Shown piece after piece: positions 3,853-35,947 of a stretch of 64,000 nucleotides of DNA (positions within the stretch are counted from its first letter, which is position 1; every line of letters begins with the position of its first letter). Both the position numbers and the translations under genes were made by a program. The notes under the pieces were generated by a model. It searched no databases and was not told the DNA's origin. It saw only the letters and a list, made by a program, of their open reading frames with translations. The DNA is from Alphaproteobacteria bacterium (GTDB lineage Bacteria; Pseudomonadota; Alphaproteobacteria; JAAEOK01), in the NCBI GenBank assembly GCA_024244705.1, contig JAAEOK010000060.1, forward strand, positions 27,146 through 91,145, in the 5' to 3' direction.

Positions 3853-4587
3853 ATGGGCGCGCTTCCGTCGAAAATCGAGAACGCCGAGGCTCCTACTCAC
3901 GTTGCCATAATTATGGACGGCAACGGGCGCTGGGCGCGCGCGCGCGGCTTGCCGCGCACCGCCGGTCACAGACGGGGCGCCGAATCGGTGCGACGCGCGG
4001 TCGAAACCGCGCGCACGATCGGAATTTCGTACCTTACGCTCTACGGCTTTTCATCCGAGAACTGGAAACGCCCACCGAATGAGGTCGACGACCTGATGGG
4101 CCTTCTGCGTCTTTATCTCCGGAGTGAGATCAAGGATTTAAGCCGCAACAGTGTCCGCGTGCGGGTCATCGGCGATCGAGGGAAACTGCCCACCGACATC
4201 GTGGATCTCATCGAGGACGCCGAGCAGACCACTGTCGGAAACAGTGCGCTGACATTGATCGTCGCGCTGAGTTATGGCGCACGGGCTGAAATCACCGCCG
4301 CCGCTCGTTGCGTGGCCCGCAAGGTCAAGAGCGGCGAGCTGGAACCGAACGATGTCGACGAGCATGTATTCGAGCGCTTCTTGTCGACCGATGGAATTCC
4401 CGATCCGGATCTCTTGATTCGCACCAGCGGTGAACAACGCCTCAGCAATTTCCTGCTGTGGCAATGCGCGTACGCCGAACTGGTCTTCGTCGATACGCTA
4501 TGGCCCGATTTCACTCGTGACGATTTCGAAGACGCGATCGATGAGTTTCGGCGTCGAGAACGCCGCTATGGCACAGCGGCAACCTAG
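3853..4587 (+). CDS. uppS: Undecaprenyl diphosphate synthase
   Basis: HVAIIMDGNGRWA and YGFSSENWKRP motifs. Confidence 0.95.
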   Translation: MGALPSKIENAEAPTHVAIIMDGNGRWARARGLPRTAGHRRGAESVRRAVETARTIGISYLTLYGFSSENWKRPPNEVDDLMGLLRLYLRSEIKDLSRNSVRVRVIGDRGKLPTDIVDLIEDAEQTTVGNSALTLIVALSYGARAEITAAARCVARKVKSGELEPNDVDEHVFERFLSTDGIPDPDLLIRTSGEQRLSNFLLWQCAYAELVFVDTLWPDFTRDDFEDAIDEFRRRERRYGTAAT

Positions 4588-5392
4588 GCGCCGACGGATG
4601 ACGAGACTACGCACGCTCTCCGCCCTTGTGCTCGCTCCGGTCACGCTGGCGGCGGTCTATGCCGGAAGTCCGGTATTTGATCTATTGGTCATCACAGCAG
4701 GCGTGATTATGGCCTGGGAATGGACGCGATTGACAGGAAACGGACGATTCGGTTTCGCCGGCGCGACCCTGATTGCCGTCATCTTTGTCGATATCCTGAT
4801 AGTCGCAGTTGGATGGCCGATCGCGGTGATTCCGATTGCGATTGGCGGTGCAGTCATTACCGCCGGAGTCGCGAACTGGGAAGGCAGCGAGCGACCGATT
4901 TGGATGGGTGCTGGCGCCCTCTATGTTGGCCTTCCGTCGGCCGCCTTGCTTTGGTTGCGTGATTATTCGGGCGACGGGCTGGTGATCGTGATATGGCTCC
5001 TCGTTGTGGTCTGGGCGACCGATATCGGAGCCTATTTCGCCGGGCGTACCATTGGCGGACCGAAGCTCGCCCCCGCCATCAGCCCCAACAAGACATGGGC
5101 CGGATTGGCGGGCGGAGTGTTGTTGGCGGGAGCGACCGGTGCTGTCATTGCGGGCCTTGTTGATGTAACCAATGCGACCATACCTGCGGTGGTTGGCGGC
5201 CTTATGGCCATCGTCGCTCAAGCGGGAGATCTTGTTGAGTCGAAGATAAAACGCATTTTCGGTGTCAAGGATACGAGCAATCTCATACCAGGGCACGGCG
5301 GATTGTTGGACCGACTCGACGGCGTTGTGGCCGTGGCACCGACGTTGGTCTTTATCAATTGGATTTGGGGAGGCGAAATCCTGACATGGTAG
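4568..5392 (+). CDS. cdsA: Phosphatidate cytidylyltransferase (start ATG 4568, or alternatively 4598)
   Basis: Multi-TM protein; C-terminal GHGGLLDRLDG signature. Confidence 0.88.
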   Translation: MAQRQPRRRRMTRLRTLSALVLAPVTLAAVYAGSPVFDLLVITAGVIMAWEWTRLTGNGRFGFAGATLIAVIFVDILIVAVGWPIAVIPIAIGGAVITAGVANWEGSERPIWMGAGALYVGLPSAALLWLRDYSGDGLVIVIWLLVVVWATDIGAYFAGRTIGGPKLAPAISPNKTWAGLAGGVLLAGATGAVIAGLVDVTNATIPAVVGGLMAIVAQAGDLVESKIKRIFGVKDTSNLIPGHGGLLDRLDGVVAVAPTLVFINWIWGGEILTW

Positions 5393-6615
5393 TTGGATCA
5401 AATGAGTCGGCGGCCAGCGGCGCGCGCAGTGTGACGATCCTTGGATCGACCGGTTCGATCGGAACCAATACCATTGACCTGATCGAGAATGGTGAAGGTT
5501 GCTATAGGATCGCCGCGCTGACCGCCCATCAAAGCGCGGAGACCCTGGTCGAGCAAGCGCGTCGACTCAAGCCCGAGATTGCGGTCATTGCTGATCCGGC
5601 GAAATACTCCGCTCTGAAGGAGGGACTGGCCGGTACCGACATCGAGATTGCCGCGGGACCCGAAGCGCTTGTCGAAGCCGCGCAACGCCCCAGCGACTTC
5701 GTCATGGCCGGAATCGTCGGATACGCGGGCTTGGCCCCGACTCTCGCCGCAGTTCGCCGCGGCGTGACAGTGGGCTTGGCAAACAAAGAGTGCCTGGTCT
5801 GCGCCGGCGATATCGTCATGGCTGAAGTAGAACAGGCGAATGGGACGCTATTGCCGGTGGACTCGGAACACAGCGCCATTTTTCAGGTATTTGAATTCGA
5901 TCAGGCGCATACCGTTTCGCGCGTGATTTTGACGGCATCAGGCGGGCCGTTTCTAAATCGGGCACGCGTCGAATTGACAAACGTCACTCCGGCGCAAGCG
6001 GTGGCGCATCCAAATTGGGATATGGGCGCAAAAATATCGGTTGATTCGGCGACCATGATGAACAAGGGTCTCGAAGTCATAGAGGCCCACCACTTGTTTC
6101 CGGTGGAGGACGAGAAGATCGAAATCGTTGTCCACCCACAATCCGTCATCCATAGCATGGTCGAATATGTCGACGGTTCCGTCCTGGCCCAACTTGGGAC
6201 GCCGGATATGCGAACGCCTATAGCCTATGCACTCGGATGGCCCAGTCGCATTTCGTCACCATCGGCGAAGATCGATTTCATGGCCGCCGGTGATTTGACC
6301 TTTCAGGCGCCGGACGACGAAAAATTTCCCGCCATAAGGTTGGCGCGAACAGCGCTCGAAGCGGGAGGGAGCATGCCGGTCACACTCAATGCTGCAAACG
6401 AAATAGCGGTGCGGGCGTTCTTGGATGGCGAAATTGGCTTCCTTGATATAACCGACGTTATTGACGCGACGCTCGACAATTCATCGAATACGGCACTCGA
6501 TTCGCTGGATACGGTCGTGGCAATGGACATCGAAGGACGGCGGCTCGCGACGGAACAGGTGAAGCGAATTTCAAATTCCGAATTCAATGGTTTGAGGAGC
6601 GCGGTATCGCAGTGA
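5386..6615 (+). CDS. dxr: 1-deoxy-D-xylulose 5-phosphate reductoisomerase
   Basis: SVTILGSTGSIGTNTIDLI NADPH-binding N-terminus; DSEHSAIFQ; 7-bp overlap with cdsA. Confidence 0.95.
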   Translation: MVVGSNESAASGARSVTILGSTGSIGTNTIDLIENGEGCYRIAALTAHQSAETLVEQARRLKPEIAVIADPAKYSALKEGLAGTDIEIAAGPEALVEAAQRPSDFVMAGIVGYAGLAPTLAAVRRGVTVGLANKECLVCAGDIVMAEVEQANGTLLPVDSEHSAIFQVFEFDQAHTVSRVILTASGGPFLNRARVELTNVTPAQAVAHPNWDMGAKISVDSATMMNKGLEVIEAHHLFPVEDEKIEIVVHPQSVIHSMVEYVDGSVLAQLGTPDMRTPIAYALGWPSRISSPSAKIDFMAAGDLTFQAPDDEKFPAIRLARTALEAGGSMPVTLNAANEIAVRAFLDGEIGFLDITDVIDATLDNSSNTALDSLDTVVAMDIEGRRLATEQVKRISNSEFNGLRSAVSQ

Positions 6616-31256: not shown

Positions 31257-32084
31257 ATGAGCGCACTGCACCACGTTGCCGTTGGCGGCCTCGAAATCGG
31301 TAACGATCTGCCGTTGACGTTGATCGCCGGTCCCTGTGCATTGGAGAGCCGGGCCCATGCCTTGGAAACGTCGTCTGCACTTCGCGAGATCGCCGGCAAG
31401 CTCGGCATCGGTCTGATATACAAAACCTCGTTCGACAAGGCCAATCGAACCAGTTTGCAGAGTCCTCGTGGCCTCGGCTTGGCCGAATCCCTTCCGATCC
31501 TGGCGGAAATTAGGGACAGCGTCGGCGTCCCGGTGTTGACCGATGTGCACGAGTCCGGCCAGTGCGCGGCGACCGCAGAAGCGGTCGATGTTCTGCAAAT
31601 ACCCGCCTTCCTCTGCCGTCAGACCGATCTTCTGGTCGCCGCCGGCGAAACCGGCAGCGCCATAAACGTCAAAAAGGGTCAGTTTCTTGCGCCCTGGGAT
31701 ATGACGAATGTGGTGTCGAAGATCGAAGCAACCGGAAATCGCCGCATTTTGCTGACCGAACGCGGCGCCAGTTTCGGCTACAACACGTTGGTTTCGGATC
31801 TGCGGTCGCTACCGATCATGTCGGCGACCGGCTACCCGGTCGTGTTCGACGCGACACACAGCGTGCAACAGCCAGGCGGACAAGGCGCCAGGAGCGGTGG
31901 CGAGCGTGAATTTGTACCGGTTTTGGCGCGAGCCGCGGTCGCCGTCGGCGTTGCCGCCGTTTTTCTCGAAACCCACCAAGATCCCGATGCCGCGCCAAGT
32001 GACGGGCCGAACATGATCCCGCTGTCGGCACTCCAGACGCTACTCGAGAAGTTGATCGCTTTCGATCGCGTGGCCAAGATTTAG
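31257..32084 (+). CDS. kdsA: 3-deoxy-8-phosphooctulonate synthase
   Basis: [16 protein letters not shown]...[12 protein letters not shown] motifs. Confidence 0.9.
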
Positions 32085-32412
32085 AGAACCTCCCGCACGG
32101 GCAAGAATTGACGCGGAATACAGGGGCCGGTCATTTCTCCCGGTAAATTTACCGAATCTAAAAACTTGAACGGCAGGATCGCCTGACGACGGCGCACGCG
32201 AGCGTTCATTGTTCCGAACCTTGTGGAAGGCGCCTAGCGAGAAGGTGGATCGGGGTCGCGGCGAATCGCCGCCTCCTTACCTTCGTTGAAGGTGAGGATT
32301 CCCGGATCGACTTGATTATTGGAGGCATCGGGCGCGGACCACGCGGCGACCCGACTGCCGCCCGGCGACCTCAAGAGTTGCGGGGCCGGGTACTGACGCA
32401 TGGAGCGGTCGA

Positions 32413-33852
32413 GTGCGGCTAAGTGATGTTCTGCTCGCAAAGGGTATTGTAACTACCGAAGAGGTCGCAAGCGCGATTGCGCGCCAGCGCAGTCATGGTG
32501 GGCCCCTTACCGATAACTTGCTGGCATTGGGATTAATCTCGATCGTCGATCTCGATGCGATCCTGAAGCAGGTGCCGATCGCGCCGTCGACGATCGCCGA
32601 TACCGGCCTCAAAACAGAATATTTGATCACCTTGTTGGCGAAATCCATTCGCGTCCTCAATCTGACCGCGATTGGCGAAATCCGGGATGCGATGAAACTT
32701 CCGACCTCGGTTCTGGAGAACGTGCTGCAGGAAGGCGTCACGCGCGGACTTTGGGAAGTATCCGGACACGAGGGCGGAGACGGAAGTTCCGGTGCGCGTT
32801 ACCGTCTTACACAATCGGGCAGGAAGTTCGCCGACGAGGTTTTCGACCAGAATCAGTATGTCGGGCCGGCGCCAGTTTCGCTAGGTGCGTATCATGCCCA
32901 GGTCCGCAAACAGGCCATCGGCGGCGAGCGCGTTGCGCCGGAGCGGGTGGCGAAGGTGTTTTCGGATCTTGTGGTTTCGGAAAAGTGCCTGCGACGACTT
33001 GGACCCGCGCTCAATTCCGGCAAATCATTGCTCCTCTACGGGCCGCCCGGAAACGGAAAGACCACAATCGCCCAGCAGATCGGAAAAGTGTTCGAGGACA
33101 TCATCTTCATTCCCTACTGCATCGAAGTGGGCGGGGAGATCATCCGGGTGCTCGATCCCAGTCTCCACGAAATCGTGGCGACCGACGATGCCAGTGCCCA
33201 CGCGACTCTGGTTCGCCGCGAGGGGATAGATGCGCGCTGGATCGCGTGTCACCGTCCTTTCATCGTCACCGGTGGCGAGTTGAGCCTGGAAATGCTCGAT
33301 CTGAGCTTCAACAGCATTTCCAAGTTTTACGAGATGCCGGTGCACCTCAAGGCCCAGGGCGGCACGTTCGTCGTTGACGATTTCGGCCGCCAGTTGGTCA
33401 AGCCCGAAGAGCTTCTTAACCGTTGGATCGTGCCGCTCGAGCAGGGCGTGGATTACCTCAAATTACATACCGGTAAGACGTTGCAGGTGCCGTTCGATCA
33501 GCTGACGATTTTCTCGACCAACCTGACGCCTGAGAATCTGATGGATGCGGCGTTCTTGCGTCGGATCCCCTACAAAATGCTGATCGGAGAACCGAGCGTG
33601 GATGAGTTCAAGGAAATATTCCGCCGTGTTTGCCAAGGCCGCGATATCGCCTGGTCGGACGAGGATGCGGACAGGATTATCGCGCATATGAACGCAATCC
33701 CCGGGCATCAATTGGCCCGCTACCAGGCCAAGTTCCTCACCGATCAAATCGCGACCGCGGCACGCTTCGCTGGCGCGCCAATAGAATTCCATCCGGATAT
33801 GATCGACGATGCCATTTCGAATCTGTACGCGCAGGATTCCGAGGGTTCATGA
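32413..33852 (+). CDS. AAA+ ATPase with N-terminal MshEN (T2SSE_N) cyclic-di-GMP-binding motif pair; function unknown
   Basis: Residues 2-25 RLSDVLLAKGIVTTEEVASAIARQ, a 5-aa spacer RSHGG, then PLTDNLLALGLISIVDLDAILKQ (24-5-24 MshEN architecture). Walker A LLLYGPPGNGKTT, Walker B-like TFVVDDFGRQ, sensor region IFSTNLTPENLMDAAFLRRI resembling classical FtsH-type AAA. GTG start. Confidence 0.7.
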   Translation: MRLSDVLLAKGIVTTEEVASAIARQRSHGGPLTDNLLALGLISIVDLDAILKQVPIAPSTIADTGLKTEYLITLLAKSIRVLNLTAIGEIRDAMKLPTSVLENVLQEGVTRGLWEVSGHEGGDGSSGARYRLTQSGRKFADEVFDQNQYVGPAPVSLGAYHAQVRKQAIGGERVAPERVAKVFSDLVVSEKCLRRLGPALNSGKSLLLYGPPGNGKTTIAQQIGKVFEDIIFIPYCIEVGGEIIRVLDPSLHEIVATDDASAHATLVRREGIDARWIACHRPFIVTGGELSLEMLDLSFNSISKFYEMPVHLKAQGGTFVVDDFGRQLVKPEELLNRWIVPLEQGVDYLKLHTGKTLQVPFDQLTIFSTNLTPENLMDAAFLRRIPYKMLIGEPSVDEFKEIFRRVCQGRDIAWSDEDADRIIAHMNAIPGHQLARYQAKFLTDQIATAARFAGAPIEFHPDMIDDAISNLYAQDSEGS

Positions 33853-33979
33853 GCGTGCTGATTTCCCGGGATCGTGTTCAAATGTCTGTACTCCTGCCCG
33901 TGGTGAATTTCGGGACTCGATCCGATCGACGGGGTTTTGAAAACGATCGATCGAAGTTGACACGAAAGGTGTGATTGCG

Positions 33980-34351
33980 ATGCCTAGAACACTGTTAGTC
34001 TATGACGACGAACCCAATGTATTGCAAATGGTGTCGATGGTCGCGCGGCAGGAGGGATTCGAGACCGTCGAAGCTCAGAACGACGAAGACTTTTGGAGCT
34101 GTTACGACGACAGGCAGCCTTCGGCAATTTTGCTCGATATCGTGGTCCCGGGGACCAGCGGCATTGAAATGCTTGGCCAGCTGGCGGGCAAAAAATGCTC
34201 CACGCCGATATTGATGATGAGCGGGTATCACCGCGAGATCCTGGGCAGCGCGCGGCGACTCGGAGGGTCTTACGGCCTCGACGTCCGGGATATCCTGGTC
34301 AAGCCCTTCTCTGTGGACGACCTCAAGTCAAAGCTGCGCGAGATCGAATAA
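33980..34351 (+). CDS. Single-domain CheY-like response regulator receiver
   Basis: LLVYDDEP acidic pocket, LLDIVVPG phospho-Asp, MMSGY, VKPF lysine; no output domain. Confidence 0.8.
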   Translation: MPRTLLVYDDEPNVLQMVSMVARQEGFETVEAQNDEDFWSCYDDRQPSAILLDIVVPGTSGIEMLGQLAGKKCSTPILMMSGYHREILGSARRLGGSYGLDVRDILVKPFSVDDLKSKLREIE

Positions 34352-34525
34352 ACGGTCATCCGCGCGGTCCGCCCCGCACTGTCCAAGCCTTCGCTTGAGC
34401 CTCGCGTCGTTGAGTTTCTTGGACGTTTTTTCTTTGTCGGGGTCGCCGCATCCGGCCAAAACGACTAGCATGACCGCGACGCGGTGGGCGGATCGCCATT
34501 CACGGCGGCATAGTGATTTCGATAG

Positions 34526-35947
<1,422 letters not shown>

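Follow-up and report, generated by a model that had tools for sequence, protein, structure and literature searches.

In the 64-kb stretch of alphaproteobacterial DNA analyzed here (contig JAAEOK010000060.1; hereafter the window), a 479-amino-acid protein carries at its N-terminus a module that is, by homology, of the MshEN_N type, fused to an AAA+ ATPase. MshEN is a receptor module for cyclic di-GMP (c-di-GMP), and its fusion to an AAA+ ATPase is a new architecture for a known receptor module. The protein consists of three modules, namely an MshEN_N-like head, a winged helix, and a divergent AAA+ core, and its gene is followed by a gene for a single-domain receiver (REC). The reading that we favor, which we hold with about even confidence, is a composite one: the protein serves the Tad pilus system as an accessory ATPase gated by a signal, and its c-di-GMP input is weakened or lost in the clade of the window protein and is replaced or supplemented by the phospho-receiver. 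An earlier note made from the sequence alone (the original prediction) had proposed the MshEN–AAA fusion as novel. The claim holds up: the published table of MshEN architectures (Wang 2016 Supplementary Table 4) contains no MshEN_N–AAA+ fusion, and a literature search for an MshEN–AAA+ protein found no description of one.

The head is covered end to end (residues 2-53) by the NCBIfam model NF053729 (53 positions, 'c-di-GMP_motif, MshE-related'). Against the cutoff of 38 bits, the full-length protein scores 34.9 bits (E 1e-8) and the isolated head scores 39.6 bits (E 3.2e-10). In a phmmer search of PDB sequences, the first 66 residues match PilF (E 3.4e-7) and Vibrio cholerae MshE (PDB 5HTL), and the gap-free alignment pairs head residues 2-53 with MshE residues 9-60. 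A profile of 54 family members matches PilF at 4e-13 and MshE at 3.5e-7, in register with the GSPII domains of PilF. Motif 1 (residues 2-25), the 5-residue spacer (26-30), and motif 2 (31-54) show the MshEN layout of two 24-residue motifs and fit MshE residues 9-61 without a gap. In the AlphaFold 2 (AF2) model, the head forms four helices (residues 3-9, 15-28, 32-38, and 44-53) with a predicted local distance difference test score (pLDDT) of 80-88. Judged from these sequence comparisons, the MshEN-like match is far above chance. The N-terminus had been assigned to MshEN/T2SSE_N. The MshEN half of the assignment is borne out by the MshE register, with NF053729 borderline, but PF05157 (T2SSE_N) gives no match to the ATPase protein at E up to 1. 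Likewise, the two 24-residue motifs flanking an RSHGG spacer are present, but the second had been quoted with 23 residues. The ORF (open reading frame) and the other quoted motifs, GPPGNGKTT, VVDDFGRQ, and TN...AFLRR, are all found in the sequence.

In MshEN, the backbone NH of the glycine at position 3 of each motif bonds guanine, and the arginine, lysine, or leucine at position 1 stacks on guanine. The glycine is strict even in the relaxed MshEN search pattern (Wang et al. 2016, PMC5013675). In the window head, this signature glycine is missing from both motifs, with S4 and T33 in its place. The deviations in the MshE register are G11 to S4, R38 to P31, G40 to T33, and Q61 to V54. At position 1, R2 fits the R/K/L rule, and P31 is outside the extended consensus yet inside the relaxed pattern [RKPN]. 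At position 24, Q25 provides the glutamine of motif 1, and motif 2 ends in V54; Q53 pairs with MshE Q60, not with the key residue Q61. R2, Q25, and the hydrophobic triad positions are kept.

Work on other heads indicates what such changes would cost. The loss of binding in XpsE has been blamed on changes including G11V, R38G, G40L, and Q61V (Wang et al. 2016, PMC5013675). In PilF, lysine, leucine, or proline at position 1 is compatible with binding, and proline occurs in the binding-competent GSPII-C (PMC11731258). Replacement of the position-3 glycine of one PilF motif by alanine raises the dissociation constant 10-fold, with the methyl group pointing into the pocket, and the terminal glutamines are required for measurable c-di-GMP binding (PMC12002112). 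Because both glycines are replaced by residues bulkier than alanine, the c-di-GMP affinity of the window head should, by analogy, drop by one to two orders of magnitude. Since a single glycine-to-alanine change costs ~10-fold and V54 stands in place of the terminal glutamine, c-di-GMP gating of the window protein appears doubtful, and the label 'c-di-GMP-gated' given to it by the original prediction is hard to maintain. The consensus behind that label had written position 3 as 'x', hiding serine and threonine in place of glycine. The case gives a general caution that a motif-level match does not establish ligand binding and that the positions written 'x' decide. For the canonical relatives, c-di-GMP gating is plausible.

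The relatives of the window protein are thousands of full-length, unannotated proteins from Rhizomicrobium, Sneathiella, Bauldia, Dongiaceae, Acidobacteriaceae, and others, and a library of representatives at 50% identity contains 673 clusters at E <= 1e-30. The matches of many relatives begin only at about residue 54, and the alignments of the representatives start at query residues 50-58. This is the position of a linker in which P55 is invariant and P58, T64, and G65 are nearly invariant. Upstream of it, the same core carries FHA, PAS, HDOD, unassigned extensions, or nothing, and the MshEN_N head is present on 29 of the best 150 representatives. The protein belongs to a large uncharacterized family, in which the core stays the same and the sensory head is exchanged. 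The Bdellovibrio protein Bd2402 ('REC-MshEN_N-UNK') is different, in that the sequence after its MshEN_N is unlike the conserved linker. Canonical-head genes sit in variable regions, as seen in a Rhizomicrobium locus, where a PhdYeFM/PIN toxin-antitoxin pair (L002:745-1514) and a Gp49/HTH pair (L002:13016-13470) lie in the neighborhood of the homologue; these pairs are unrelated to the finding.

Among 220 unique headed sequences, both position-3 glycines are kept in 179, one is lost in 11, and both are lost in 30. Most headed relatives have the canonical form of the motif pair, M-[R/L/F]-[LI]-G-D…Q-xxxGG-R-L-G-[DE], and the contact glycines are invariant in the 179 canonical relatives. In the group that has lost both glycines, the hydrophobic scaffold positions are conserved and the contact positions diversify (S/E/A/D/N in motif 1; T/A/I/L/S/V/R in motif 2). 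The glycine at position 10 of motif 2 is also often lost. A neighbor-joining tree built on the core unites the group, with the sole exception of L071, in a single clade, which we call the degenerate or window clade. NF053729 scores the isolated heads of this clade at 34-40 bits, as against 49-56 bits for the heads of canonical relatives.

In the strongest competing explanation, the model of the original prediction, physiological levels of c-di-GMP would still suffice for binding by the window head, which would gate the ATPase, and REC would be a CpdR-like adaptor or a second input. We consider this unlikely, though it deserves serious attention. The isolated head passes the NF053729 cutoff and is conserved, not decaying; it keeps R2, Q25, and the triad positions; and its proline at position 1 of motif 2 has a counterpart in GSPII-C, which is competent to bind (PMC11731258). 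Set against this, both glycines have become the bulkier serine and threonine when one alanine is already costly in PilF (PMC12002112), V54 reproduces the Q61V change of XpsE (PMC5013675), and the contact positions vary inside the clade and are invariant outside it. Nor does a CpdR-type role gain support from the genes around the ATPase–REC pair, among which no linked protease or ClpX-like gene is present.

The gene directly downstream of the ATPase gene encodes the receiver. Its start is better placed at ATG 33980, which has AAGG 10 nt upstream and gives 123 amino acids, the length of the NCBI product of the identical protein. A receiver had been reported 128 bp downstream of the ATPase gene. 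The PF00072 receiver is there, but the gap is 127 nt from this ATG or 118 nt from the alternative start GTG 33971. The codons of the phospho-acceptor Asp, the Ser, and the Lys lie at 34136, 34220, and 34301, respectively, and the acidic pair is also canonical. The corresponding residues D12, D13, D56, S84, and K111 (126-amino-acid numbering) are conserved in the orthologues. By these residues, REC is a canonical phospho-acceptor.

A close REC orthologue lies directly downstream of the ATPase gene in the window and at seven further loci (L007, L008, L009, L010, L059, L091, and the P0044 locus), the wider neighborhoods of which are otherwise unrelated. The downstream REC is found in 8 of 14 loci of the degenerate clade, versus 0 of 72 loci in which one glycine or both are kept. 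The original prediction had raised co-occurrence of the two genes across genomes as a point to check; the pair is indeed conserved, within the limits of the degenerate clade. In an all-against-all comparison of neighboring ORFs, REC is the sole neighbor conserved across the contexts of MshEN_N-headed loci, with no other conserved neighbor beyond the local synteny of close relatives. The homologues indicate that REC is a small orthologous group of its own, always single-domain. Combinations of REC with MshEN have precedents (Wang 2016 Supplementary Table 4). Separately, a subclade with canonical heads ('MAIGELLLAKG…'; L067, L074, L075, L077, L079, L081, and L090) has conserved plus-strand ORFs downstream, one of which opens like a receiver without the acidic pocket (…LALIIQSNEG…FIFAELAV…).

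Head-less homologues link the core to the Tad/Flp pilus. A search of annotated plasmid and chromid proteins gives 76 records with such homologues, and we examine nine replicons across α-, β-, and γ-proteobacteria. In all nine, the homologue is encoded in or beside a Tad/Flp locus. In Rhizobium etli CFN42 p42e, R. sullae, Sinorhizobium fredii NGR234, and Ensifer adhaerens, the ATPase gene follows genes for a CpaE-like protein, an L,D-transpeptidase, CpaF, TadB, and TadC, in this order. In Salipiger it is convergent with tadC, and in Pseudorhodobacter it lies ~2 kb downstream of tadC. In Burkholderia pyrrocinia and Paraburkholderia terrae the order is Flp pilins, prepilin peptidase, ATPase, CpaB, secretin, TadG/E, TadZ, and CpaF, and the gene order in Photobacterium is as in Burkholderia. 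The window protein is 43% identical to R. etli RHE_RS25680 over query residues 44-475 (E 1e-106) and 34-36% identical to the Burkholderia and Photobacterium homologues. The head-less proteins have the core signatures GPAPV, GGEL, DD[FL]GRQ, LNRW..P, FS.N, and RR in common with the window protein.

Two REC-linked members with degenerate heads, at L091 and the P0044 locus (Dongiaceae-like), are themselves in tad operons, with the order TadZ, CpaF, TadB, TadC, …, prepilin peptidase, ATPase, REC, unknown gene, FlgO, and M23 peptidase. The target of the system, which had been described as unknown, can be narrowed, with Tad/Flp as the likely one in view of the head-less orthologues in pilus operons. 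The Tad and MshEN literature that we searched contains no description of the family ATPase. Two side observations concern the same operons. The genes after the ATPase–REC pair at L091 (5545-8290) and the P0044 locus, encoding a conserved unknown protein (254-267 amino acids), a FlgO-domain protein, and an M23 peptidase, may belong to the same module. In addition, PGAP also calls TadZ/CpaE 'AAA family ATPase' (L094:15836-17044 and L095:15152-16387), though this protein is AAA_31 (ParA-like) with a receiver-like N-terminus; the two unrelated 'AAA' genes of each of these tad operons are easily confused in annotation-based surveys.

The AF2 model of the 479-residue protein (pLDDT 82.1; predicted template modeling score 0.81) has a MarR/PadR-like winged helix ahead of the AAA+ core and places the ATPase in the pre-sensor-1 β-hairpin group of AAA+ proteins. 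The hairpin lies between helix α3 and the sensor-1 strand of the model, as the superclade (ComM, BchI, MoxR, MCM, RuvB, and NtrC) requires. The tip of the hairpin, H352-T-G-K355, is nearly invariant in MshEN_N-headed members and less so in the head-less members of β- and γ-proteobacteria. The structures nearest to the model are the Pyrococcus furiosus Q8U0N8 hexamer (PDB 8P49), ComM, BchI, RavA, and MCM. The protein had been assigned to the classical clade of AAA proteins and compared with FtsH, a comparison explained by its Walker A and second-region-of-homology segments, which resemble, in sequence, those of the classical proteins NSF, p97, and Msp1. The model topology does not sustain this assignment, and PF00004 stays below threshold (20.1 bits versus a gathering score of 21.2, residues 206-227 only). 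The hairpin (residues 346-360), the β-rich insert (residues 236-313), the Asp-Asp Walker B, and the non-classical structural neighbors speak against it as well. A DnaA/IstB-type identity, which the original prediction had named as an outcome that would count against it, leaves a sole trace (PRK08181, 13.6 bits versus 317), and DnaA/IstB/DnaC-type proteins are not among the structural neighbors of the model.

The Asp-Asp Walker B is found in every member, the distant and Tad-embedded ones included (DD[FL]GRQ). An Asp-Asp Walker B, as in AAA+ proteins such as DnaA, allows hydrolysis and suggests slow, switch-like behavior. The β-rich insertion contains many family-invariant residues (D248, H252, D273, R275, W276, C279, R281, P282, GGEL 287-290, Y306, P309, and K313) and gives only chance-level matches to PDB sequences; it is likely the specific functional surface of the family. 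AAFLRR of the arginine-finger region comprises residues 379-384, and model confidence is low over residues 378-390. The helical lid has the invariant residues L434, A435, Q438, F441, and N470, and no invariant sensor-2 arginine.

The fold brings up another explanation, in which the protein is a DNA-directed machine or a transcription regulator. Its target would then be DNA instead of the pilus apparatus, and it might, for instance, control the expression of tad or other genes. The helicases ComM and MCM are among the structural neighbors, NtrX and PspF among the more distant ones; two relatives give weak Sigma54_activat matches; and regulators are often encoded inside the operons that they control. 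On the other side, the charge analysis lends no support to DNA binding: the mean net charge of the winged helix is -1.1, slightly on the acidic side, its recognition helix is neutral and hydrophobic, and its wing is rich in glycine and acidic residues. There is also no GAFTGA-like motif, and no DNA-binding family hidden Markov model (HMM) reaches significance in the scan of the ATPase protein. We consider a DNA-directed role rather improbable, somewhat more so than retained c-di-GMP gating.

In the composite reading that we favor, the core is probably hexameric, like the solved structure nearest to it (8P49), and the invariant Asp-Asp Walker B suggests that hydrolysis would be slow and switch-like. 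The core most likely acts on or regulates the Tad pilus machinery, because head-less members are encoded inside Tad/Flp operons; the window protein would do so in trans, because the 64-kb window is without tad genes. In canonical members, the binding of c-di-GMP at the far N-terminal end probably shifts the head and gates the activity or the assembly of the ATPase, as in MshE and PilB, and this would apply to most headed members because their motif pair is canonical. In the window clade, the replacement of the head glycines would weaken or remove the c-di-GMP input. REC, phosphorylated by a kinase, would dock on the ATPase and supply or supplement control, an interaction that we propose. A more ambitious version, in which the family is an unrecognized third Tad/Flp ATPase working as a hexameric accessory motor or regulator, with its head swapped repeatedly among MshEN_N for c-di-GMP, FHA for phospho-threonine, PAS, and HDOD and with REC having replaced c-di-GMP in the window clade, is possible and distinctly more tentative.

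Several observations weigh against the composite reading. The function that we infer for the family comes throughout from sequence, model, and gene context. A search of the whole 64-kb window gives no match to a Tad protein at E < 1e-8, tad genes are likewise absent from the vicinity of most MshEN_N-headed loci, and the Tad link of the window protein is made by orthology alone. The terminal glutamine of motif 2 is missing family-wide, canonical members included, with A, I, T, S, or V in its place, so that c-di-GMP binding by the family as a whole is a prediction. The loci of the degenerate clade without an adjacent REC number 6 of 14. The link between degenerate head and REC gives a Fisher p of 8e-8 (counted over seven loci, before the P0044 locus was added), but the degenerate sequences are one clade and the link is essentially one evolutionary event, so this value overstates independence. 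The association is best read as a coincidence in time and not as replicated evidence. Conversely, a REC of the same subfamily (L023:2815-3258; 78.6 bits to the window REC) lies 731 bp upstream of an ATPase gene with canonical motifs (4001-5437), and L023 is possibly an intermediate or an exception to the rule. Fusions of REC to the core are found neither in 20 extended representatives (Pfam) nor in the best 150 representatives (REC HMM) nor among REC homologues, where a word-indexed search gives six proteins, all single-domain.

A last point of this kind is that position 3 of motif 1 is serine in 17 of the 30 sequences without both glycines, which could mean a retuned, not a dead, pocket. The head would then respond to another small ligand, such as another cyclic dinucleotide or a nucleotide. 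The partial conservation of R-L-S-E in motif 1 (this serine, and glutamate in 22 of 30) and the intact scaffold fit such a change, but the variability at position 3 of motif 2 (T/A/I/L/S/V/R) looks like relaxed constraint and not like a new pocket. No MshEN_N head with altered specificity is known to us, and we regard retuning as improbable. Least probable is an anti-phage defense ATPase related to IetA/IteA: although the best annotated HMM matches are to IteA (NCBIfam, E 3.3e-9) and IetA (PADLOC, E 5.6e-10), they reach 36-37 bits (36.4 in the IetA/IteA test) versus an equivalog cutoff of 510, they score best over no more than the Walker A region (residues 189-226), the neighborhoods have no IetS-like protease and are housekeeping genes or tad operons, not defense islands, and a collection of 50,697 phage records contains no homologue. 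Matches to other defense families are likewise weak and centered on Walker A.

If the more ambitious version is true, the window clade is a natural example of rewiring from a second messenger to a two-component signal on the same effector. Only two receptor modules for c-di-GMP are truly widespread, MshEN being one of them, and a large family of AAA+ proteins headed by it would constitute a further, new class of c-di-GMP effectors, found in Alphaproteobacteria and Acidobacteria. The clade with degenerate heads and linked REC genes offers a natural experiment on the way in which an effector comes to respond to another signal. In addition, judged by its operon context, the family would give the Tad pilus an unstudied ATPase; both the regulation of this pilus and the way in which one motor (CpaF) extends and retracts it are under active investigation.

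On the plus strand, the gene order in the window is tpiA, secG, pyrG, kdsA, the 479-amino-acid ORF, the small receiver ORF, eno, ftsB, pdhA, and pdhB (features in Table 1). The 2.5-kb interval noticed earlier amid housekeeping genes measures 2573 bp, from the kdsA stop (32084) to the eno start (34658). The guanine-cytosine (GC) content is 0.54-0.58 over 33250-34250, that is, the 3' half of the ATPase gene and REC, versus 0.60-0.65 in the kdsA and eno flanks. Because of this dip and the presence of the same gene pair in unrelated contexts elsewhere, it is plausible that the pair is an insertion, a two-gene cassette acquired later between kdsA and eno. The ATPase product is identical to the NCBI hypothetical protein GY791_10405 from a metagenome-assembled genome (Alphaproteobacteria). 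The homologues all open M-[R/F/L]-[LI]-, which places the start of the sensor motif at residue 2. A scan of 31900-34750 with Rfam finds no family and no c-di-GMP riboswitch, and a promoter scan of the kdsA–eno interval finds no promoter-like sites. A terminator scan finds two terminator-like sites, a number at or under chance expectation, and none is convincing in the interval. The gap between kdsA and the ATPase gene (32085-32412) comprises 328 untranslated nucleotides without an Rfam match or a promoter-like consensus site; an antisense 68-amino-acid ORF (32234-32440) that overlaps it is probably spurious.

Table 1 Features of the ATPase–REC locus (positions in the window)
Feature	Position	Strand	Remarks
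Shine-Dalgarno-like GGAG	32402..32405	+	8 nt 5' of the ATPase GTG start; read from sequence
ATPase gene, 479 amino acids, GTG start	32413..33852	+	MshEN_N-like head, winged helix, and divergent AAA+ core
MshEN_N motif 1, residues 2-25	32416..32487	+	RLSDVLLAKGIVTTEEVASAIARQ; in register with MshE 9-32
Spacer RSHGG, residues 26-30	32488..32502	+	G29 invariant, G30 nearly invariant in the family
MshEN_N motif 2, residues 31-54	32503..32574	+	PLTDNLLALGLISIVDLDAILKQV; position 1 Pro, position 3 Thr, position 24 Val
Linker P-x-x-P-x-[ST]-[IV]-x-x-T-G-L, residues 55-66	32575..32610	+	Homology with head-less, FHA-, PAS-, and HDOD-headed relatives begins here
MarR/PadR-like winged helix, residues 68-146	32614..32850	+	Three helices; β-wing 114-117, 129-132; wing loop of low confidence
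AAA+ α/β core, residues 157-395	32881..33597	+	
Walker A GPPGNGKTT, residues 210-218	33040..33066	+	Includes K216; G210, G213, N214, G215, and K216 family-invariant
β-rich insertion, residues 236-313 (78 residues)	33118..33351	+	Separates β2 from the Walker B strand
Atypical Walker B FVVDDFGRQ, residues 319-327	33367..33393	+	Asp-Asp for Asp-Glu
Predicted pre-sensor-1 β-hairpin, residues 346-360	33448..33492	+	Strands 346-350, 356-360; from the model
Sensor 1 FSTN (367-370) and Arg-finger region DAAFLRRIPYK (378-388)	33511..33576	+	R383 and R384 invariant
C-terminal helical lid, residues 396-471	33598..33825	+	Helices 396-409, 416-427, 436-453, 461-471
Spacer, 127 nt	33853..33979	+	ATPase stop to probable REC start; without terminator-like site or Rfam match
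Single-domain receiver (REC), 123 amino acids, ATG 33980	33980..34351	+	PF00072 59.3 bits versus cutoff 30.2

Comparison with known systems places the family beside several ATPases. CpaF/TadA and TadZ/CpaE are encoded in the same operons as head-less family members, but CpaF is of the PilT/VirB11 type and TadZ is of the ParA/MinD type with an atypical receiver, and the family ATPase is an unrelated third kind. The closest solved structure, P. furiosus Q8U0N8 (8P49), is archaeal, 16-21% identical, without an MshEN_N head, and itself uncharacterized. From ComM, BchI, RavA (MoxR), and MCM, the window ATPase differs by its Asp-Asp Walker B, its 78-residue β-rich insert, and its N-terminal winged helix. 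CpdR–ClpXP provides a known case of a single-domain receiver that serves as adaptor of an AAA+ machine. The likeness is in the genetic pairing of an AAA+ ATPase with a free-standing receiver, known here from gene adjacency alone; the AAA+ clade is another one, the window pair is without a protease partner, and the receiver is an orthologous group of its own.

Other proteins share the signal or the module. FleQ is likewise a c-di-GMP-responsive AAA+ protein and controls surface-behavior genes, but it binds c-di-GMP on the AAA+ domain (Wang 2016 discussion), whereas the candidate site of the window protein is in a separate N-terminal MshEN_N. The EpsG-type MshEN_N-AAA_31 proteins (Wang 2016 Supplementary Table 4) likewise carry MshEN_N without MshEN_C on a P-loop NTPase, but AAA_31 is a MinD/ParA-type, tyrosine-kinase-like fold and the window core is AAA+. 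With the MshEN_N of MshE, PilB, and PilF (5HTL, 6F8L; PMC5013675), the window protein shares the tandem 24-residue motifs, the 5-residue spacer, and the position as an N-terminal four-helix head of an ATPase with a link to a type IV filament system, which for the window protein is a link by orthology. MshE, PilB, and PilF belong to type IV pilus and type II secretion systems. Their output is a PilT/GspE-type ATPase, in contrast to the AAA+ protein with winged helix in the window. Unlike MshE, the window protein lacks the MshEN_C (T2SSE_N1) subdomain and has the position-3 glycine pair and the terminal glutamine of motif 2 replaced. The nearest parallels to its head are two domains that do not bind c-di-GMP, GSPII-A of PilF (PMC12002112) and XpsE (Wang 2016), in which the fold is kept and changes are found at motif-2 position 1, the position-3 glycine, and the terminal glutamine. 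In those secretion ATPases the domain is an additional or vestigial one, whereas the degenerate head in the window is the sole head of its protein and coincides with a linked receiver gene.

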